Source: Alphaproteobacteria bacterium (GTDB lineage Bacteria > Pseudomonadota > Alphaproteobacteria > GCA-2731375). Taken from it: DNA of 64,000 bases. How positions within the stretch are numbered: position 1 is the stretch's first letter; each line of letters opens with the position of its first letter. The notes under the pieces are model-generated. The model saw nothing but the letters and a program-made list of their open reading frames with translations. It was not told where the DNA came from and ran no database searches. The position numbers and the translations under genes were made by a program. The stretch lies in NCBI GenBank assembly GCA_965225945.1, contig CBDDBZ010000004.1:1-64000 (forward strand), written 5' to 3'. This document shows positions 75 through 17,501 of the stretch, in pieces.

Positions 75-3000
75 ATGTCCAAGGTAGATGCTGCTTCGTA
101 TTTGAAAGCCGTGCATGACGCCCTGGCAAAGGGCAACGCGACCGAACATACGTATCGCCCGGCACTCAAGATCTTTATCGAATCCTTCGCGACGATCTGA
201 CGGCAACCAACGAGCCAAAGCAGGAAAAATGCGGAGCCTCCGACTTCCAGATCACCCGAAGGTCGATCCCGATCGGGCATGTCGAGGCGAAAGACGTCGG
301 CAAGGATTTGGACAAGGTCGAAAGACCGACCGATTGAAGCGCTACCTGGAAGCGTTGCCGAATCTGCTCCTGACTGATTACTTGGAGTTCCGATGGTACG
401 TCTTCGGGCAACACCGGATGACGGCCACACTGAATACTACAAGCGCCACCAGCATCGATGACGTCTCCGAGCTCAGTCACGCCTTTCTAGAAGCCAAGGT
501 CCCCACCATCCGCAGCCCAAGGGACTTGGCCTCTCGCATGGGCGGCATGGCGCAGTTGATGCGGAACATCATTCGCAAGGTCTTTGACGAGGAGGGCAAG
601 CAGGGCTCGCTGCACACGCAGTTGAAGGGGTTCCGCTCGGTCCTCATCGAGACGCTGTCGGTGGACGAGTTCGCCGACATGTACGCGCAGACCATCTGTT
701 ACGGCCTGTTCGCGGCACGCTGCAACCACGAACCGAAGGAGACCTTCACCCGCGAGAAAGGGGCTTACGAGCTCCCGAAGACCAATCCCTTTTTGCCCGA
801 GATATTTGGCCACATCGCTGGACCGGACTTGGACGAGCGCCTGACATGGATCGTCGACGATCTGGCAGAGCTTTTGGACAAGGTCGACATCGAACAGATT
901 CTTAGGAATTTTGGCAAACGCTCCCGGCGCGAGGACCCGGTAGTCCATTTTTATGAAACTTTCCTCGCCGAGTACGATCCTAAGCTCGGCGAGATGCGGG
1001 GCGTCTACTACACGCCGGAACCAGTGGTCAGCTATATCGTCCGGAGTGTCGATCACATTCTGAAAACGGACTTCAAGCTCGTTGACGGGCTCGCCGACAC
1101 TACTATGGTCAAGGTGCCGAAGAGTGTTCTGGGCGGTCGGACGGAGGTGCCTCGCGTCACCATTCTCGACCCAGCCGCTGGTACGGGAACGTTTCTTCAC
1201 GAAGTCATCGACCACATCCGCGAGCAACTGGAAAATCAAGGTCAGATGGGGGCTTGGAGCAGCTACGTCTCTCAGTTCCTGCTGCCACGCCTGTTCGGCT
1301 TTGAACTTCTGATGGCTCCCTACGCTGTCTGCCACCTGAAACTTGGCTTACAGCTGGCCGAAACCGGTTACGACTTCCGGGCTAATGAGCGGCTGCGTGT
1401 TTACCTGACCAATACTCTGGAGGAAGCACATGAAATAGCCGGACTGCCACTATTTGCCCAAGCTCTCTCCCGCGAGGCCGCCGAGGCCGGTGAAACAAAG
1501 CAGGACTACCCGGTGATGGTCATCCTTGGCAATCCCCCCTATTCAGTCCATTCGGCGAACAAGGGGAAGTGGATTCACGAGTTGCTGCGCGGCAAGGACC
1601 TGACGATGGAAGAGGAAACGGGTAACTATTTCCGGGTAGACGGCGAGCCATTAGGTGAGAAGAACCCGAAGTGGCTAAATGATGATTACGTCAAATTCAT
1701 ACGCTTCTCGCAATGGCGGATTGAACGCACCGGCTACGGCGTCCTAGCCTTTATTACCAACCACGGCTACTTGGACAATCCGACCTTCCGGGGTATGCGC
1801 CGGAGCCTGATGGATACCTTTGATGACATCTACGTTCTCGATCTGCACGGTAACACCAAGAAGAAAGAACGGGCGCCGGACGGCACAAAGGACGAAAATG
1901 TTTTTGACATCCAACAGGGTGTTGCTATCGGCATCTTCGTAAAGAACAAGAATGGCAGCGGCAAAAAGGGGGCGGCTCAGGTCCATCACGCCGACCTGTG
2001 GGGCGATCGTGAAATCTGGGCGGTGAGGGTGACGATCAGAAGCTCAAAGACGGGAAATACTGGTGGCTGTGGAGGAACGATGTTGCTTCGACATCCTGGA
2101 CGGATTTTACCCCGAAGTCCCCATTCTATTTGTTTCGCCCACAGAATGAGAAAATTGGCAAAGAGTATTATGTCGGTTGGTCCCCACCTAAAGCCATGCC
2201 AGTCAGTGTGCTTGGATTCCAAACTCACCGTGACAAGTTCGCGATAGCATTTGGTGAGATAGAACTACGAGAAAGTCTTGAGGAAATGAGAGATTCCTCA
2301 ATTTCAGACAATGAGTTCGCGTCGAAATACGGATTGAAAGACAATCTTGATTGGAAACTGTCCAGATGCTAGAGAGGCAAACTACAAAGATCCAGATTGG
2401 GAAAATCGAATAACTGAATATCTTTACCGACCTTCGACCAACGACCATGCTATTTCAGCGAAATTATGATGGACCGTCCACGCCGCGAACTTGTTGATCA
2501 TGTGTTTTCCAAAGATAATTTTTGTATCTTGGTCCCTCGTCAGATTGGAACGTCTGAATGGATGCACGCTAGCTTCACAAAGCATGTTGCAGAAAGCTGC
2601 TTAGTGTCCACAAAGACCAGAGAGAAAAACTACAATTTTCCCATATACCTCTACCCGAAGCCTGGCAAGAAAGACCTCTTTGACGACAACGAGAAATCCG
2701 ATGCGCCAGGCGGGAGGCGCCCCAACCTATTCGGCGATTTCATAGATGAGTTTTCCGGAAAACTCGGACTCACCTTTGTCTCCGAGGGTAGGGCGACATG
2801 GAAAAAACCTTCGGACCAGAGGATGTGATGGCCTACATTTACGCCATTCTCTACAGTCCGACCTATCGTGAACGCTATGGAGAGTTCTTACGAATCGACT
2901 TTCCCCGTATCCCCCTGACATCCAAAAGTGATCTGTTCCGTGCCCTTTGCGAACTCGGAGTAAAACTAATTGGACTGCATCTGACCGAGATCGCTGGGCC

Positions 3001-3319
3001 GGCCATGACTCGCTATCCGGTTGAGGGCGGCAATGTCATTCAAAAGGTCACATACACAGGAGCTCAAGAAGGCCGGCCGAGTCGGGTATGGATAAACGCT
3101 ACGCAATACTTTGAGAGCGTGCCGGAGGAGGTTTGGAAATTCCACTTTGGCGGTTATCAGGTTTGTCAAAAATGGCTCAAGGACCGTAAAGGACGGATGC
3201 TCGACTTCCAGGAGATCCAGCACTACCAACGCATCGTCTCGGCACTTTCGGAAACCCTTCGCCTGATGGCAGAAATCGACGCTGTTATCGATAATAGCAA
3301 CGGTTGGCCAATCGATTAA
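75..3319 (+). pseudogene. Single-chain type IIG / type ISP-like restriction-modification enzyme (nuclease + N6-adenine MTase + C-terminal specificity domain), split by six 1-nt frameshifts
   Basis: ATG at 75 reads MSKVDAASYLKAVHDALAKGNATEHTYRPAL; a shifted frame gives GASDF..GHVEAKD (PD-(D/E)XK-like). ORF 115..2247 has GVYYTP, motif I ILDPAAGTGTF and motif IV GNPPY. The C-terminal parts in ORFs 2130, 2466 and 2798 include YAILYSPTYRERY..DFPRIP and GGYQVCQKWLKDRK. Confidence 0.85.
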
Positions 3320-3499: not shown

Positions 3500-4864
3500 T
3501 CATCCGCGCCACGGCCCCTGGGCGACGGTGGCGGTCTTCTCGGCCGGGGCTCCGGCGAGCGGATCGGTACCGCCTTCGGCCAGGGGCCGCGCGGACGCCG
3601 CGCCGGGGCGCCTCGCCATCTCCGCCAAGGACGCCTCGCCGAGGCGTACCGTCGCCACGTCGCCGCCCTCGATCGGCTCCAATCCCAGCCGCTTGCGGGC
3701 CTCGTTCCGGGTGATGATGCCGTTGCCGACCAGCGGCACCAGAGATTGCGCCTCCATCCGCCGCTGATCCGCTATCGCCGTAATCTTGTCCCAGTCGTAG
3801 TCGAGCCTGAGCTCTTCACCGAAGCGCGGCACCAGCCATTCGTTCAGGTCGACCACGGTGCGGCGCATCCGGGGCATGATCGCCTCCTGCCACAAGGCCA
3901 GGCGGGCCTGTTCGAAATTGGCGAAGGTCATGGCGCCGGGAATGCCGACGAGCTGCGGCGGCACCCCGAAGGCGAGCGCCACGTCGCGCGCCGCCGTGTC
4001 GTTCAGCGCCGAATAGTCCATGTCCGAGGGGTTCATGCCGATCTGCTGCCACTGGAAATCACCGTCTAGAACGCTTATCCGCCCCGACCGGCTGGGCCCG
4101 CCGAATTCGCGGTTGAGGTCGGCCTTGATCGCGCGCAGCTGCGCCTCGTCGATCGAGGCGACGGCGCCGGCATCGTCCTTCGGGCTGTAGATGAAGGCAC
4201 CCCGGGGCGTCGCGTCGTTCTGTAAGAGCGCCAGGTTGTGCTTGCCCGAAGCGTTGTGTTGGTCGATCCGAAGGGCCGCGGCGCGGAGCGGCTATTGCCC
4301 CTTGTGATCGTCGAGCGGGTTCCACAGCCGCAGGTGCTTGACCTCGGATTGTCCGCTCTGCGGGTCCACGGAATAGACCGCGAAGGTCCTGCCGTCGACG
4401 ACATACTCGTAGGCCCGCGGGATCTCCACGGTGCCGGCCTGGATCTTGATGCGATCGGGCCTGAGGACGTAGAGCTCGCGCGGCGGCCCCATGACCGGGC
4501 CGGCGCGCAGCAGGAAGGCGTTGCCGTCGATCAGCCGGTAGCCATAGAGCGCGGTGAACAATTCGACCCCGCTCACGCTCGGCGTCGGGCGCGCCAGAAG
4601 CCGCAGCAAGGGATGGTCGCCCGCCAGCGCTTCCTCGCCCCGGAACAGCTTGAACGGAATCGCCGCCGCGCCCTCGGCGATCAGGTTGACGCAGCGATAG
4701 ACGATGGGGTTGAGCTGATAGCCCTCTTCGGCGAAGTCCTTGAAGCGATCGCCCATGAGGCGCGCGACGCCGCCACCGGCGAGAGTCACCATCGGGGCTT
4801 GCTTGGCCGCGAGAGTCCCTGAGAAGGCCCGGCGCGCGGCGCCGAGCGCGGTGAATAATTTCAT
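3500..4864 (-). pseudogene. HK97-family / GTA-like phage portal protein with one in-frame TAG
   Basis: ORFs 4292..4864 and 3500..4036 are in the same frame, joined across TAG at 4292-4294 (DDHKGQ*PLRAAA). Motifs: GYQLNPIVYRCVNLIA, HPLLRLLARP, LYVLRPDR, ALAFGVPPQLVG, ITRNEARKRLGL. Confidence 0.88.
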
Positions 4865-6192
4865 CGGATGACCGCTCCCCTGGCTTTGCCGCCGCGCCCC
4901 GGCAGCAACGCCGTCAGCGCCCAGACCAGGGCGTCGACCCTATCGGGCGAGGCGCGGCCTCGATCGAGATCGATGGTGAAGGCGCACATTTGATCCTCCA
5001 GCGCGGCATGCGAGCCGACGTGATGCACGCGGCCCTGTTCGTAGAGCGCGGCCACCGGCTCGGCCCGCACCACCTTGCCGCGAGTGGCGCGCAGCGCGCG
5101 GTAGGGCACGTCGGCGTCCAGCTGTCGCAGCACCGTGCCGATCCACTCGCCGCCGTTATTCACCTCGGCGACGATTCTGTCGGCCTCAAAACGGTAGTAG
5201 GCGGCGAGCGCCGTCCGGCAGACCGCATCGGGCGTGCCGCGCCGCGACCGGTCGTCCAGGACATAGCCGTGACCGTCGGTGCCGAGGCCGGCGACGACGA
5301 TGCCGCTTTCGTCCGCGTCCTCGCCCGATGTCGCCGCCGGATCGATCGCGACCACGATGCGCCGAAGCTCGGGCGCCTCGGCCAGGCGAAGCGCGTCGAT
5401 CTGGGCCCGCTGCCAGAGCGCGCCGGGCACGTCCTCGAGCCATTCGGCGTCGAGTTCCTGGCGCCCGAGCCGGGTTCCCTCGTAGCGCTGGATCACCTGG
5501 CTGAAAAAGGACGGCGCCAGGTTCTCGCGGTTGTCGTAGGTCGTGCCCCGCGTCGTTACCGTATTTGGCGAGGCCATGATCGTCTTCAACAGGCGGATCG
5601 GTTTCGGCGTGGTCGTGACCACCTGGCGCGGATGCTCGCCCAGCCGCAACCCGAATTGCAGCATGTCCCAAGTGGCCTCGGCGTAGCGCCACTTGGCCAG
5701 CTCGTCCGCCCAGGCGGCGTCGTGCTGGGGGCCGCGCAGCTGGTCGGGCTCGACTGCGTTATAAAGCGTGGCGATCGCCCCGTTGGGCCAGGTGACGCGG
5801 CGCTTCGAGGGCTCGTAGCGCGGGCGGAAATCCGGCGGATGGGTGGCCAGGAGGCCGCTCTCGCCCTCGACCATGACATCGCGCGCGTCGGCCGCCGTTT
5901 CCGCCACCAGGGCGATCCGGCGATAGCGCCCGGGCGCGAGCGGAGAAGCGCCCGAGACGCCGCTTCGGACCCATTCGGCGCCGACCCGGGCCTTGCCGAA
6001 GCCGCGCCCGGCGAGCAGTAGCCAGACGGTCCAGTCGCCCGGCGGTGGCAGTTGTTCGGGCCGCGCCCAACTCGGCCAATCGAAGCGAAGTGCCTGGGCC
6101 TCCGCCTCACTCAGGCTTTGGATCAAGCGCGCCCTTTCCGAGCCGGGCAGCGATGCGATCGATCTCATCAGCGAGACGGGCTCTGACATCAT
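4861..6192 (-). CDS. Terminase large subunit (Terminase_6-type, GTA-like); Walker A reads GKA
   Basis: LLAGRGFGKAR, LRGPQHDAAWADELAKW (Walker B), VVTTTPKP, nuclease-domain VVAIDPA and SPDRVDALVWA. It overlaps the portal start by 4 nt; the true start may be 6168. Confidence 0.92.
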   Translation of the reverse strand: MMSEPVSLMRSIASLPGSERARLIQSLSEAEAQALRFDWPSWARPEQLPPPGDWTVWLLLAGRGFGKARVGAEWVRSGVSGASPLAPGRYRRIALVAETAADARDVMVEGESGLLATHPPDFRPRYEPSKRRVTWPNGAIATLYNAVEPDQLRGPQHDAAWADELAKWRYAEATWDMLQFGLRLGEHPRQVVTTTPKPIRLLKTIMASPNTVTTRGTTYDNRENLAPSFFSQVIQRYEGTRLGRQELDAEWLEDVPGALWQRAQIDALRLAEAPELRRIVVAIDPAATSGEDADESGIVVAGLGTDGHGYVLDDRSRRGTPDAVCRTALAAYYRFEADRIVAEVNNGGEWIGTVLRQLDADVPYRALRATRGKVVRAEPVAALYEQGRVHHVGSHAALEDQMCAFTIDLDRGRASPDRVDALVWALTALLPGRGGKARGAVIR

Positions 6193-6685
6193 CCACCTCG
6201 ATCGCGCCTGTGTCCTCGTCGCGGACCAGCTTGTTCCTGTCGATGAACATCGCGAGATAGCGGCCGATCATCTCGAGCGCCCGCGCCTTGTCCCAGACCT
6301 TGATCTTGTGGGTGACTTCGACCGCGCCGTCGATCCCGGGAACGGTCCGCTTCACGACCTCGTAGGAGGCGACGGCCGCCGCGATATCGTCGGGCAGCTC
6401 GGCGATCCGCCGCAAGCCGCCCTTTTCGTCATGCATTCGCCGGACGTCCGCGAAGCCGATCCGCGCGAGCTCGCGCAGGACCTTCTCGACCGAGACCTCG
6501 GCGCGGCGGGCGCCGACCTCGACCAGTTCCGCGACCCGGGCACGAACCTCCGGGTTCGCTTTCAACCGCCAGGCGTTTCCCGGGGTCCCGCTATAGCCCG
6601 CCCACCGATAGGCCTCGGCCAAGGTCATGCCCGTGGCGAGAGCTTGAGCGAAGCGTTCACGACGGATATTGCTCAGGGCGGCCAT
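6107..6685 (-). CDS. Terminase small subunit
   Basis: N-terminal ERFAQALATG..AEAYRWAGY..A.RL.ANPEVRARVAEL, then VEKVLRELARIGF and KIKVWDKARALEMIGRYLAMF. Lies directly upstream of terL, with a GAGG RBS. Confidence 0.85.
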   Translation of the reverse strand: MAALSNIRRERFAQALATGMTLAEAYRWAGYSGTPGNAWRLKANPEVRARVAELVEVGARRAEVSVEKVLRELARIGFADVRRMHDEKGGLRRIAELPDDIAAAVASYEVVKRTVPGIDGAVEVTHKIKVWDKARALEMIGRYLAMFIDRNKLVRDEDTGAIEVDDVRARLADEIDRIAARLGKGALDPKPE

Positions 6686-6703
6686 GGCACCTCATCGGTC
6701 ATT

Positions 6704-6755
6704 GCTTCGATCCCCGAACACCACGCGAGGCTTCGATCCCCGAACACCACGCGAG
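6704..6755. repeat. Perfect 26-bp tandem duplication upstream of terS
   Basis: gcttcgatccccgaacaccacgcgag at 6704-6729 and 6730-6755; not duplicated in the paralogous leader at ~9125. Confidence 0.9.
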
Positions 6756-6817
6756 CACCGCCCGTCCCGACCGGCCAGCAGCGCGGCGGGGCGACGTTTT
6801 AGAGCTGGGGTGAGAGG

Positions 6818-6990
6818 CAGGGCAATCGCGTGAAGTGATGGACACGGCCTTGATACCGCGTCAACCGCCGCGAAGGGGCCATTGAGGCCCCGCGAGCCCA
6901 TGCGAGCGAAGCCAAGCGCCCGGATGGGCGCGCCCGGCGTCTGAGGGAACAAGAAGAATCCAGGGCAATCGCGTTCACGCGATTGCCCTG
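6818..6990. mobile_element. 173-bp MITE-like element, copy 1
   Basis: 17-bp terminal inverted repeats cagggcaatcgcgtgaa / ttcacgcgattgccctg; flanking 10-bp direct repeat gggtgagagg at 6808-6817 and 6991-7000. Confidence 0.8.
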
Positions 6991-7012
6991 GGGTGAGAGG
7001 CCTCGGCCCCTG

Positions 7013-7125
7013 AAACGCAATGCGCCCCGTGCGGTGACGCCGCCGGGGCACAGTTCGCCAAGTGATAAGGTAGATGGTTTCGGGGTGTCCCGTTGGCAAG
7101 GGGGCGGGTGTGAAATTTTTTCGCG
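7013..7125 (-). promoter_or_regulatory. Conserved ~110-bp non-coding unit, copy 1 (putative phage late promoter plus hairpin/terminator)
   Basis: Near-identical copies at ~9402-9510 and ~12396-12506. The minus strand reads cttgcc..gggacaccccgaaaccatcta..., then a GC hairpin (gccccgg..cggggc) with a T-rich tail, upstream of terS. Confidence 0.55.
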
Positions 7126-7209
7126 AGGCCCCCTAAATGCCCGGAATCATGTAGCAAGCACACCTTGAATCCCCTCACGTTTTTCGCTGGATTTCCATAG
7201 ACTCAGGCC

Positions 7210-7655
7210 ATGAATGCGAGGGGCGAGCAGTACGTCGTAGCCGGCTTGGTTCGCAAGCGAGCGGAACGCGCCAGCACCATCGAACGCCTACAGTCCGAAC
7301 TCAAAACAAAACTGGCGAAACTGGAGACAGTGGACTCCGCCCTTCGCATGTTCGCCCCGACTACCCGATAGAGACCATCAGGCCCGAAGCCTTCCATCCA
7401 CCGCCGGATTGGGCCAGCCGGGGCGAGATGTCTCGTACCGTGCTGTCCATCTTCCGGCAAGCGGCGGAATCCATGACCACGCGGGATATAGCCTTGGAGC
7501 TACTGGTTACGCGCGCCCTCGACAGCAGCGACAGGCGGCTCTTGCGGCTCATGTCCAAGCGGGTCGGCGTGGCGCTCAGGCGCCAGCGCGACCGAGGGTT
7601 GGTGCGGTCGGTGGAAGGGCCGGGGCAATATCTCCTATAGGAAATGGCGCAGTAA
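7210..7655 (+). pseudogene. Conserved alphaproteobacterial hypothetical protein (coiled coil + wHTH-like), with a frameshift and a premature stop
   Basis: MNARGEQYVVAGLVRKRAE..VDSALRMFAP, frameshift at ~7357, then DYPIETIRPEAFHPPPDWASRGEMSRTVLSIFRQA..EGPGQYLL*EMAQ (TAG probably from TGG). Confidence 0.6.
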
Positions 7656-7657
7656 AT

Positions 7658-7951
7658 TCATGGCTTTAGCAATGACAACCCACCAATAATGCCGCCCCAT
7701 AGTATTGCTACAATGGCCAAATAAATGCCCGCCCATGTGAGAAGGTCACGTTTGGTCGCAAGTGTGGGTAGCGCTGAAAGCTTATCCTTAATATTATCAA
7801 GATCACGTCGAATGTACCCAAAATGAGTCTCAAGTCGAGTTACGCGCTCGTTCATATCGCCGCCATCGCTACCTGCTCCGCCAGAACGTTGGATCACGTT
7901 GCGCAACGCGTCCTCACCAATCGCAAAAATTCTTGTCTCGTCATCCGCCAT
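7658..7951 (-). CDS. Small coiled-coil protein with C-terminal transmembrane helix
   Basis: GGDMNERVTRLETHFGYIRRDLDNIK..LATKRDL followed by a hydrophobic tail; low GC. Confidence 0.55.
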   Translation of the reverse strand: MADDETRIFAIGEDALRNVIQRSGGAGSDGGDMNERVTRLETHFGYIRRDLDNIKDKLSALPTLATKRDLLTWAGIYLAIVAILWGGIIGGLSLLKP

Positions 7952-8238
7952 CGGGGGAGCCTCCTGACAGCAGACCTTCTTTTTCAGCCCAATTCTGAAT
8001 TATACCCCTAGCAAATGAGCGAACTTGCCCGCAATTCCCACACAGCAACACTACAAGTGGTATGTGGGGCGGCGGTACGCTGAACCCACCCCCTTCCGGC
8101 GGAATCAGCAATTGAGCGCTGAATTGCTTCTCATCGGTAGCCAAGGCCCAATTCCGGTGGTCACAGGTGCTGCAAGGACGGGTTGCCTCCTTCGCTTCGA
8201 GAAATTTTACGACTACTTCACGGCTAAGATGGACAATG
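7941..8238 (-). CDS. Small zinc-ribbon protein (CxxC...CxxC); start uncertain
   Basis: The frame of ORF 7941..8144 is open upstream to ~8247 and reads VKFLEAKEATRPCSTCDHRNW...LLCGNCGQVRSF. Confidence 0.5.
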
Positions 8239-8269
8239 AAGGCGACTCAAGCATGCAATACGAGGCCAA

Positions 8270-9106
8270 TCAAGCGCTCCGCTGCCAATACCCCTTCCAC
8301 TGCCGGCTCACGGGATGCCCGGCGGCGGCGGCGGCGACCAGCTTGAACAGCGTCCCGTTGTCCCGCCGGCGATAGTCCTCGCGCCACGCCATCTCCCGCG
8401 CGTAGCTCGCGAGGTAGGGGCCGGCGAGGTGATGATGCGTGCCGATTCCGGCCCGGCGCAAGCGCGAGAAATACGACTCCGCCTGATTGGTGCAGACCCC
8501 GGCCTCGAAGAACCGCATGGTGTGGTTGACCCGACGGACGTCATGGAAGCCGTGCAAGGCATCCCATGACGTCGACTCGTCGGCATCGACCACCGTCCCT
8601 GTCTTGACGCCGGCGTGGATGGTCTCCACCGACTCCGACTCGTGCTGGAAGACGTGAACCAACGTCCGCCCCCGGCGCTCACGCATCACCACCACCGCCT
8701 TGCGCTCGCCGGTCTGGTTCTCGGCGAGCCGCAAGTCCTTCCGGTCTTCCTTCGTGTTCTCCGGCTTCACGTAGCCGCCGAAATAGGCGCCGTCGACCTC
8801 GACCAAGCCCTCTAGCGTGGCGTCCTTCCGTTCCGCCGCCATCGCCTCGCCAAGCTTGTGCGCGAGCACGAAAGCCGTCTTGTACCGAACGTTCAATTCC
8901 CGGCTCAGTTGCAGCGCCGACACGCCCTTGGCGCCGACCTCGATCAGTTCCGCGACCCGGGCGCGAACCTCGGCGTTCGCCCTCAACCGCGCGGCGTTTC
9001 CCGCGTTCGCTTCATAGCCCGCCCGCCGATAGGCCTCGCCCGCCGTCAAGCCCGTGGCGAAGGCTTGGGCGAAGCGTTCACGACGGATATTGCTCAGGGC
9101 GGCCAT
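8270..9106 (-). CDS. Chimeric ORF: TerS N-terminus fused in frame to an IS1595-family DDE transposase
   Basis: The first ~59 aa are paralogous to TerS 6107..6685. They are followed by KGVSALQLSREL..YKTAFVLAHKL, VEVDGAYFGG, VDADE, TNQAESYFSRLRR and EMAWRED. Confidence 0.85.
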   Translation of the reverse strand: MAALSNIRRERFAQAFATGLTAGEAYRRAGYEANAGNAARLRANAEVRARVAELIEVGAKGVSALQLSRELNVRYKTAFVLAHKLGEAMAAERKDATLEGLVEVDGAYFGGYVKPENTKEDRKDLRLAENQTGERKAVVVMRERRGRTLVHVFQHESESVETIHAGVKTGTVVDADESTSWDALHGFHDVRRVNHTMRFFEAGVCTNQAESYFSRLRRAGIGTHHHLAGPYLASYAREMAWREDYRRRDNGTLFKLVAAAAAGHPVSRQWKGYWQRSA

Positions 9107-9206
9107 GGCACCTCATCGGTCATTGCCTCGAAGCCCGACGAGCACCGTCCCGTCCCGGCGGGCCAGCAGCGCGCCGGGGCGAAGTTTCAAAGTCGGGGGT
9201 GAGAGG

Positions 9207-9379
9207 CAGGGCAATCGCGTGAAGTGATGGACACGGCCTTGATGCCGCGTCAACCGCCGCCAATGGGCCATTGAGGCCCCGCGAGCCCATGCGAGCGAAG
9301 CCAAGCGCCCGATTGCGCGCGCCCGGCGTCTGAGGGAACAAGAAGAATCCAGGGCAATCGCGTTCACGCGATTGCCCTG
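9207..9379. mobile_element. 173-bp MITE-like element, copy 2
   Basis: Same TIRs and same gggtgagagg direct repeats (9197-9206, 9380-9389) as copy 1, with a handful of internal substitutions. Confidence 0.8.
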
Positions 9380-9401
9380 GGGTGAGAGGCCTAGGCCCCT
9401 G

Positions 9402-9510
9402 AAATGCAAAGCGCCCCGTGCGGGTGATGCCGCCGGGGCGCAACTCGCCAAGTGATGGGTTAGATGGTTTCGGGGTGTCCCGTTGGCAAGGGGGCGGATG
9501 CGATTTTTTC
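9402..9510 (-). promoter_or_regulatory. Conserved ~110-bp non-coding unit, copy 2
   Basis: Minus-strand hairpin gcgccccggcggcatcacccgcacggggcgc followed by tttgcattt; upstream of the terS-IS1595 fusion. Confidence 0.55.
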
Positions 9511-9511
9511 G

Positions 9512-9705
9512 GTTCTTCGCGGATTTGTGCGGACGGGACGCCCCCTCGGCGAGGCGGGCTTCGTCGAACGCCTGAAAGGCCTCACCGGCCGCCGGCTCAC
9601 GCCCGGCCGCCCAGGCCGACCCCGGAAGCTCGACGCCAAGAGGGAGGCCGATCGAGAAGCGATGCGGAAGCGAGGCTCGGAAAATAATAAACTATCCCCA
9701 GAATT
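9512..9705 (+). pseudogene. C-terminal remnant of a Y1 (IS200/RAYT-like) transposase
   Basis: RTGRPLGEAGFVERLKGLTGRRLTPGRPGRPRK resembles the typical C-terminal tail of REP-associated tyrosine transposases; the HUH domain is absent. Confidence 0.6.
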
Positions 9706-10056
9706 GCCGCGGCTCGTCATGCCCGTCTGGCACGCCCTCGACCGAGCACAGCGACGTTTTTCTGGTGCAGATGATGGTGGCGGCGACGGCGCATCTTGAT
9801 ATATAAAATTTTATCTAAATGTTGGATGAATTTGTTATTAATGTTGGATAATATTTGTGAAAATAAATAAAGAATGTCAATAAATTTCGAAACGATACTT
9901 AAATGAAAGTCTTGAATTCTTCCACGCATCTACTAATTATTAATCGCAAGGTACCATAATCATCACAAATAATCGGCGAACCGGTGCGGGGACTGGAATC
10001 TGTTCCTAACAAGGTGACGGTCATCATTCTCCCAATCGATGGAGGCCATTTGATCG

Positions 10057-12395: not shown

Positions 12396-12506
12396 AAATG
12401 CAAAGCGCCCCGTGCGGGGATGCCGCCGGGGCGCAGTTCGCCACTTGACGAGGTAGATGGTTTCGGGGTGTCCCCTCGGCAAGGGGGCGGATGCGAATTT
12501 TTCGCG
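12396..12506 (-). promoter_or_regulatory. Conserved ~110-bp non-coding unit, copy 3 (no MITE, no terS downstream)
   Basis: aaatgcaaagcgccccgtgcgggga..gccggggcgcagttcgcca..aggtagatggtttcggggtgtccc..ggcaagggggcggatgcgaatttttcgcg aligns with copies 1 and 2. Confidence 0.55.
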
Positions 12507-12549
12507 CGGGGACGCAACGCCGAATTCGCCGTGGGTTATCCTCAACATA

Positions 12550-16312: not shown

Positions 16313-16564
16313 TAAATCGTGATAATTTGGAGCCAATCCCCTGGCTTCGCCCCGGCTCGCCTACCTCCTATTGCAGCGGCGAATGGCGTTGGTCACGACG
16401 GCGGGCAGCATGATGCTATGCGGCTTTCCCCGGGTTTTGCATCTCCTCGATCATCTCGAGGCTTTTCGCGACGAAGACCTGCCAGTCGGCATCGGCGTTC
16501 ACGGCGGCGCGGACTTCGGCGCGGCGATCGAGGCTCGGATAAGCCCAGAGGTGTTGCAGACCTC
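16302..16564. repeat. Imperfect direct duplication of 16809-17033 (SDR stop plus NIPSNAP 3' end)
   Basis: Identical blocks interrupted by three short insertions (~9, ~11, ~16 nt) in this copy. Confidence 0.9.
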
Positions 16565-16808
16565 TGGATCGCGCGCGCCCCGGAAAGTGGCAGGCCAAGT
16601 GAGAGAGGCTCCGGGCGACGAACACGCCGAAGACCAAGACGCAAAGGCTCTCCAGACGGCTCTTGCGAAAGGCGAAGCCGCATCGTAGCGTCTCACGCAG
16701 GGCGTTGATCGGGTTGTCTCGCATGATTTCCCTCTTGACTCGTCGTGGAGTGAATCGGGAATCCTACAACCTTTTCAACGTCCTACGTAAATGCCGTCGT
16801 GTACCATG
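16565..16808 (-). mobile_element. IS4-family left end and transposase N-terminal fragment
   Basis: ATG 16724 reads MRDNPINALRETL..FRKSRLESLCVLVFG..LSHLACHFPGRA. The terminus catggtacacgac abuts tccccgatt (16809), which also occurs at 16302. Confidence 0.65.
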
Positions 16809-16865
16809 TCCCCGATTAGTAAATCGTGATAATTTCCCCTGGCTTCGCCCCGGCTCGCCTACCTC

Positions 16866-17501
16866 CTATTGCAGCGGCGAATGGCTGGCGGGCAGCATGA
16901 TGCTATTTTGCATCTCCTCGATCATCTCGAGGCTTTTCGCGACGAAGACCTGCCAGTCGGCATCGGCGTTCACGGCGGCGCGGACTTCGGCGCGGCGATC
17001 GAGGCTCGGATAAGCCCAGAGGTGGCAGACCTCGTTCGGCTGTCCGGCCTCCGAGGTCCAGAGCCCGACGATCTTGGAATGGCGTTCACGCACCGGCAGC
17101 GCGCCCTTGAACAGCTTGAGCCAGGCCTTCATCGCGCCGGGCCGCAGGCGATAGCAGCGCAGCTCGTAGACGTTGCCGGTCGTCTCCGGCGCTACGGGTC
17201 CGATGACGCCATTCAAGATTCGCACGTCCTGGCGCACCAACATCGGCCGCATCTTCGGCAGATAGTCGTTGTTCCACGCTTCGTTGGCGCCAAGCGCCGC
17301 CCTGAGGCGTGCCCGCTCGTTCAGATCGCTATAGCTCCACAGGTGCATGACTTGGTTGAGCGCTCCGATCTCCGCCACCCAATAGCCTTCGAGCTTGCCG
17401 TAATCGTCGCCCCGAACGGCGCGTCCGACCTCGCTCGAATGCGCCGCCGCCGCAGGCGCCATGCCGGGCAACATGGTGTAGGTTCTGAGTTCATAGACCA
17501 T
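16866..17501 (-). CDS. NIPSNAP-family protein (two repeats)
   Basis: YELRTY..GYW..EIGALNQVMHLWSY and YELRCY..GLW..NEVCHLWAY. Confidence 0.92.
   Translation of the reverse strand: MVYELRTYTMLPGMAPAAAAHSSEVGRAVRGDDYGKLEGYWVAEIGALNQVMHLWSYSDLNERARLRAALGANEAWNNDYLPKMRPMLVRQDVRILNGVIGPVAPETTGNVYELRCYRLRPGAMKAWLKLFKGALPVRERHSKIVGLWTSEAGQPNEVCHLWAYPSLDRRAEVRAAVNADADWQVFVAKSLEMIEEMQNSIMLPASHSPLQ

Follow-up and report, generated by a model that had tools for sequence, protein, structure and literature searches.

An open reading frame at positions 8270-9106 (-) of the DNA studied here, a stretch of 64,000 nt from an alphaproteobacterial contig (hereafter the window), begins as the small subunit of a phage terminase and ends as a transposase of the IS1595 family. 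The question raised by this locus is whether the combination is a new kind of enzyme or an accident of genome decay. As the initial annotation had reported, there is one unbroken frame of 278 codons, open throughout and followed by a stop codon, whose extent is given by the open-frame listing and whose content is recognized by Pfam and NCBIfam. The chimera has the appearance of a scar left by a single deletion within a prophage region undergoing decay, rather than of an enzyme of a new kind.

The two halves of the chimeric protein

The first 59 codons (8930-9106, -) derive from a terS gene and encode the N-terminal DNA-binding domain of a B-type small terminase, as indicated by matches with the neighboring TerS, PHROG 51, the PDB and the protein P0121. 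The N-termini of small terminases bind DNA during packaging, and their central and C-terminal parts are responsible for ring formation and for the contact with the large terminase. The initial annotation had described the first ~59 residues as a paralogue of the TerS encoded 2.4 kb away. The comparison agrees with this: chimera residues 1-73 are 70% identical to that protein (E = 2e-27), codons 1-59 share with its gene 46 of 59 residues and 154 of 177 bases, and the duplicated starts lie 2389-2421 bp apart. The neighboring gene (6107-6685, -) is an intact A-type terS of 192 codons according to Pfam and PHROG. The small terminases of PHROG 51 match chimera residues 6-57 (E = 6e-9) and the small terminase of Pam5 (PDB 21di) matches residues 1-69 (E = 3.3e-10); Pfam Terminase_2 does not match the chimera at E <= 0.01. 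No counterpart of TerS residues 60-192 (133 residues in TerS-A) was found in the chimera. In terms of known systems, chimera residues 1-59 correspond to the N-terminal domain of the Terminase_2 type of phage small terminase (PF03592), together with its own leader and ribosome-binding site, but everything that follows TerS residue 59 in that type, of which Pam5 is the solved relative, is lacking.

The origin of this head can be specified thanks to P0121, an intact TerS of 192 aa (Pfam Terminase_2, E = 3.6e-18) and the best match to chimera residues 1-75 among representative proteins. It shares 55 of the first 59 residues with the chimera. Since this intact TerS carries the same N-terminal type, the donor was an ordinary terS: the head of the chimera is the B-type allele as it normally occurs in this terminase and did not arise from TerS-A by divergence. 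The dN/dS ratio between copies A and B of the terS 5' part (omega = 0.98 over 59 codons) is uninformative for dating or grading the fusion, because it mostly reflects two alleles that existed beforehand, the B type being found in the intact P0121. TerS-A is itself a mosaic with respect to P0121, from which it differs at 14 of its first 59 residues and at only 4 of its last 133. It has unusual residues at W28, P35, W39 and P45, positions where most of its relatives resemble the B type.

The rest of the frame (8270-8929, -) corresponds to residues 101-320 of an intact IS1595-family transposase and contains the DDE domain. The family is reportedly the subject of a paper by Siguier et al. from 2009. 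Pfam DDE_Tnp_IS1595 (PF12762) covers chimera residues 98-244 with 122.7 bits (cut-off 27) and NCBIfam transpos_IS1595 (NF033547) scores 128.5 bits (cut-off 75). The motifs EVDG, ADE and NQAES fall in invariant columns among the homologues and include D105, D176/E177 and E210, which we take to be the candidate catalytic acidic residues, so that the full DDE core previously read from EVDG, DADE and QAES is borne out by both the scores and the conservation of the motifs. IS1595 transposases normally begin with a zinc ribbon, and Pfam detects none (PF12760) in the chimera. Both PF12760 and PF12762 are present in 113 of the best 120 matches listed out of 7134 homologues; these 113 proteins measure 298-352 aa and cover just 78-87% of the chimera used as query. 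The intact members of 317-325 aa are 60-79% identical to the chimera. The longer BLAST coverage of some transposases was dismissed as passive extension of the alignments.

The alignment places chimera residue K60 at K101 of the intact transposase P0003, which means that the first 100 residues are missing. In an AlphaFold2 model of P0003 (alignment of 54 rows, pLDDT 77.2), helices are predicted at residues 86-98, 105-112 and 116-134, and the break falls in the loop 99-104 between the first two. The deletion looks to have removed the zinc ribbon together with the first helix (86-98) of an apparent three-helix DNA-binding unit of the helix-turn-helix type. The initial annotation had proposed that the TerS domain replaced the zinc ribbon; a TerS head does stand in place of the transposase N-terminus, but the loss amounts to 100 residues including helix 86-98 and not to the ribbon alone. 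A resemblance between a TerS helix and transposase helix 1 was considered and abandoned (TerS against the intact transposase, E = 3.2). The model of the chimera itself is poor (pLDDT 66.3, pTM 0.58) and is uninformative about the packing of the two halves, because its N-terminal part had no alignment depth. The mixed alignment of terminases and transposases was left out, as it set terminase fragments on the transposase part.

The joint and its uniqueness

The similarity to terS ends at GGCGCC (8930-8935), which encodes Gly58-Ala59, at the place where the initial annotation had put the joint. The chimera reads GGTCGGCGCCAAGGGC across the joint, terS-A reads GGTCGGCGCCCGC at the same site, and the two closest relatives of intact type, L002 (80% nt identity, same genus) and L013 (78% aa identity), both read AACGGCGCCAAGGG. 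The shared stretch is 7 nt long, CGGCGCC (8930-8936), common to terS and to the closest intact IS1595-type genes, and the crossover lies within this microhomology. The exact CGGCGCC occurs at this site in 11 of 80 homologous loci. In addition, a contig from the public run X1 agrees with the window as far as 8936, where it passes into 30 bases identical to the upstream coding sequence of the element of the same-genus genome G002. As this contig goes on as an intact transposase past 8936, it places the boundary at the same site when approached from the other flank.

The assembly consists of 39 contigs, its contamination is estimated at 5.6% and the region contains repeats, all of which could favor an artefact of assembly or binning. 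The initial annotation had asked for reads spanning 8930, and this check was run at the level of contigs. In all four of the public runs examined, which come from four different studies, contigs bridge position 8930 with at least 146 nt on either side: X1 and X4 each have one contig over 8776-9098 with 0 differences from the window, and X5 and X7 each have one contig of 2021 nt over 7078-9098 with 5 differences. Moreover, P0001, a protein of the same length (278 aa) and 99% identical to the chimera, comes from another contig. These observations refute an assembly chimera and leave an artefactual joint with a negligible probability. At least half of the sampled words were found in thirteen runs from five studies; several runs with weaker matches are labelled as sponge metagenomes. 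Two further contigs were seen in runs X1/X4, a higher-depth one (about 20) that joins 8816 to 8900 and another that diverges past 8957. Both are probably related sequences from other organisms in the samples.

A search of 5.8 billion proteins was carried out with the whole chimera and with its residues 1-100, the best 120 matches being listed in each case. With the whole protein, P0001 is the only one that has the same architecture among the best 120 of 7134 matches. With residues 1-100, P0001 is again the only one that spans the joint among the 120 listed of 274, followed by two terminases with a coverage of 71% and transposases with 37-73%. Residues 1-75, compared exhaustively with 1.84 billion representative sequences, gave 1523 matches, 150 of them listed, and Pfam found no DDE domain in the 16 longest (209-384 aa) of these 150 N-terminal look-alikes; this library is clustered at 50% identity, so a chimera could hide inside a transposase cluster. 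The protein cluster of the chimera has three members. No report of a terminase-transposase fusion appeared among the papers listed in literature searches. The database search suggested at the outset for proteins of this architecture has consequently yielded a single 99%-identical protein among the matches listed, and the distribution points to the fusion being a single event.

The duplicated leader, the phage remnant and the proposed deletion

The DNA duplication extends beyond the start codon, with 8930 to ~9518 matching 6509 to ~7128 at 87% identity in the coding part and 92-96% in the leader, and a start-to-start distance of 2389-2421 bp. The leader copies are B (9107-9518, -), which includes the ribosome-binding site of the chimera, and A (6686-7128, -), which holds an extra tandem copy of 34 nt. 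Both have the same GAGG ribosome-binding site and do not differ in the bases next to the ATG, and a leader of ~410 bp has been copied upstream of the chimera, in line with the earlier statement that the chimera stands under the terS ribosome-binding site and leader. A third, partial copy comprises only the first ~115 nt (12396-12509, -); it is an orphan that runs into the 3' end of a P450 gene. The three copies are confined to this contig and begin at the same base (7128, 9518 and 12509, -), and the DNA upstream of each is unrelated to that of the others. Each of them opens with TTGCCA-N17-CATCTA, read by eye only, and a G+C-rich hairpin. The shared start may be a phage late-promoter region or the end of an element. 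A sigma-70 consensus scan of 6000-9800 detected no promoter.

Both leaders also contain a multicopy intergenic repeat of 174 nt (9207-9380 in leader B and 6818-6991 in leader A, -). The genome has ~18 full and 3 partial copies of it, at 89-98% identity, its depth is increased 20- to 40-fold in the public runs, and contigs have loose ends at 9207 and 9380. The repeat starts with a G+C-rich hairpin with a 14-bp stem (9380-9349 in leader B) followed by a T-rich run, and resembles a terminator. This terminator-like hairpin, present in both leaders, is located ~240 nt upstream of the start codon of the chimera.

A tandem duplication of a 2.4-kb unit (from transposase codon 101 to terS codon 59) at the same microhomology would yield precisely this joint as its new junction, and the leaders and terS starts do form direct repeats spaced by 2389-2421 bp; the upstream transposase and spacer would then have been lost later. 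We regard this route as unlikely. It requires the additional loss of the upstream copy, and neither a second transposase 3' part nor the 8270-7130 spacer was found upstream of 9518 or elsewhere in the genome; a single deletion is the most economical explanation. The copies also differ by 4-13%, to be compared with about 0.25% between strains, and an intact TerS bears the B-type N-terminus as an allele in its own right. The occurrence of this allele elsewhere makes two related phage copies a better fit than divergence in place.

The phage genes around the chimera are few. Between it and leader A lie a 97-aa phage-type ORF (7658-7951, -; PHROG 6324, E = 1.6e-9) and an ORF of 67 aa. Downstream of terS-A come a large terminase of 443 aa with both terminase domains according to Pfam (4861-6192, -) and a portal gene (3500-4864, -) with one in-frame stop at codon 191 (4292-4294), where the phage region ends. 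No protease and no capsid or head genes follow the portal gene. The neighboring phage is a stump made up of terS, terL and a broken portal gene. Past it, the DNA has a lower G+C content and carries a broken Type ISP restriction-modification gene. This MmeI-like gene (115-3319, +) is divided into at least 3 ORFs and lies in DNA with 46-59% G+C. Elsewhere in the window, at 16337-17024, sequences of 51 nt and 119 nt are each repeated once in direct orientation without any mismatch, at a spacing of 471-498 bp.

The ends of the insertion sequence were sought by comparing related elements. L056 and L076, two copies in the same genome with 91% identity, have nothing in common beyond the ORF and a few flanking bases. 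Ungapped matching over 80 loci suggests imperfect terminal repeats, whose definition is weak (about 12 of 19 matches), with the left repeat ~60-75 nt upstream of the ATG and the right one inside the last codons, where it encodes the conserved RQWKGYWQ. This position of the right repeat would explain why the protein tails diverge after WQR. A right-end inverted-repeat-like sequence is present inside the last codons of the chimera (8286-8304, +), and no left-end repeat was found within 3 mismatches in the 64-kb window. When a profile was built from the 60 nt that precede the ATG in the 80 loci, neither the right flanks nor the window contained an inverted counterpart of it. The nearby DNA does not contain any homologue of the ~100 missing N-terminal residues either, and among the other transposases of the 6.27-Mb genome the best match has 33% identity to the chimera. 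The element is predicted to be immobile, because a right-end repeat was kept and there is neither a left end nor a close copy in the genome. Compared with IS1595-family insertion sequences, the chimera shares the DDE domain, above both cut-offs, and the right-end repeat-like sequence, but it differs in lacking the first 100 residues, the left end and the upstream region that carries the promoter and the palindrome, and in being single-copy and devoid of close relatives in its genome.

Loci of the subfamily (L013-L092) have a conserved TTGACA box followed by a palindrome (arms of about 14 nt) just upstream of the ATG, which looks like a promoter with an operator. The genome of the window also has about 20 nearly identical copies of another IS1595-family element (e.g., C4:70933-71520), whose protein is 29% identical to the chimera. 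G002 has only a copy of the transposase gene that is 80% identical (L002, 1219-2180) and frameshifted into ORFs of 179 and 142 aa.

The ORF is most probably a scar, left when a single illegitimate recombination deleted the DNA between two short matching sequences and kept the frame by luck. In the order of events that we infer, the region would at first have contained the 5' ends of two small-terminase genes related to each other and preceded by the same leader, and, downstream of the B-type terS, an insertion sequence of the IS1595 family. A single deletion would then have joined, within CGGCGCC, codon 59 of this second terS to codon 101 of the transposase gene. This would have eliminated what follows codon 59 in the B-type terS as well as ~390 bp on the left side of the insertion sequence, including the left end, the promoter region, the zinc ribbon and the first helix of the helix-turn-helix. 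The join would be in frame by chance, with one chance in three. The initial annotation had mentioned a microhomology deletion as the simpler explanation, and this is the one favored by the 7-nt CGGCGCC, the lack of a left end and of a close copy in the genome, the single origin and the hints of relaxed constraint. The state preceding the deletion was not found: the same-genus genomes G001 and G002 have neither the terS leader nor terS-B, a scan with P0121 for B-type terS retrieved nothing in metagenome contigs and only relatives of 43-48% in viral contigs, and the DNA pattern of the junction side had 0 matches in metagenome contigs.

Constraint and possible function

The transposase part (219 codons) is still open and has kept all the candidate catalytic residues. 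An open frame of this length in a genome with 65% G+C would be weak evidence for selection. The fusion is not strongly deleterious, since it persists in samples from at least four studies. Among 80 homologues, 90 positions reach a conservation of at least 95%. The chimera deviates at five of these (D70E, Q74R, R86G, K134E and E220G), whereas the homologues deviate at 1.01 on average (median 1); at least 5 deviations are also found in 4 of the 80 apparently intact homologues. The only differences between strains inside the ORF are G86/R86, where the G of the window is R in P0001, X5 and X7 (8851 C>G), and E243K, where the E of the window is K in P0001. Both are non-synonymous and fall at positions that are invariant in 80 of 80 homologues; these two differences are too few for dN/dS. 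In a relative-rate test against the closest homologue, the chimera has 15 unique changes and the homologue 8 (chi-square 2.13), which is not significant. The deviations and the two strain differences weakly suggest relaxed constraint on the transposase part.

A working new gene would be another explanation for the open frame, the candidate catalytic residues and the terS ribosome-binding site and leader. The TerS helix-turn-helix domain would provide a new target to the DDE core, or to the DNA-binding half only, and the product could be a retargeted nuclease or transposase, a regulator, or a decoy set against the phage small terminase at the packaging site. The joint falls in a predicted loop between helices of the intact protein, which implies that both flanking units could fold, and the fusion has persisted in the samples of four studies. 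In-frame fusions that arise by deletion can reportedly be adaptive (preprint 10.1101/091744). Nevertheless, the fusion does not recur independently among the matches listed, and several near-invariant residues have changed, among them R86, which belongs to the region of the recognition helix. Neither the zinc ribbon nor the first helix of the helix-turn-helix has been retained, the TerS part after residue 59 is missing too, and no insertion-sequence ends are left to act on. The terminator-like hairpin stands in the leader 240 nt upstream of the start codon and the partner phage is a stump. A working gene is thus improbable. One version of it, in which the terS leader would drive expression of the chimera and its TerS domain would attach to the DNA of the related phage at the packaging site, where the DDE core would either cut or act as a decoy that blocks packaging, appears very improbable. 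If true, it would make the chimera a home-made anti-phage or phage-interference factor assembled from a terminase and a transposase. The altered targeting that the initial annotation had envisaged finds no support; the first helix of the transposase's own helix-turn-helix is also gone and nothing is left to mobilize.

Coming back to the deletion scar, the product, if made, would be unable to mobilize its own remnant or any other element of this genome, and the chimera would be drifting as a neutral relic beside a decaying prophage stump. In-frame fusions by spontaneous deletion have been described in selection experiments with Pseudomonas fluorescens, where they were reportedly selected and had a phenotype (10.1101/091744). 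The likeness is that one deletion joins the 5' part and expression signals of one gene to the 3' part of another, and the difference is that those fusions were selected with a phenotype whereas the present chimera is known from sequence alone.

The locus provides a clean and well-bounded case of a short-homology deletion amid mobile-element debris that gives rise to a "transposase" of full length that can be annotated as such and bears a DNA-binding head of foreign origin. Since its score exceeds the NCBIfam cut-off, annotation pipelines will label it as an IS1595-family transposase, which in any working sense it is not. If it were functional, it would represent a natural domain swap on a DDE enzyme; nothing here points to function. 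Because other truncated or oddly started copies of this transposase occur in databases, the chimera is one more of its decay products, eye-catching through its terminase head. Six such copies (P0022, P0030, P0057, P0073, P0081 and P0098) are N-terminally shortened ORFs with an intact DDE part, like the chimera, but they have no terminase domain and their breakpoints are different. In P0081, 24 foreign residues are joined just before helix 1.
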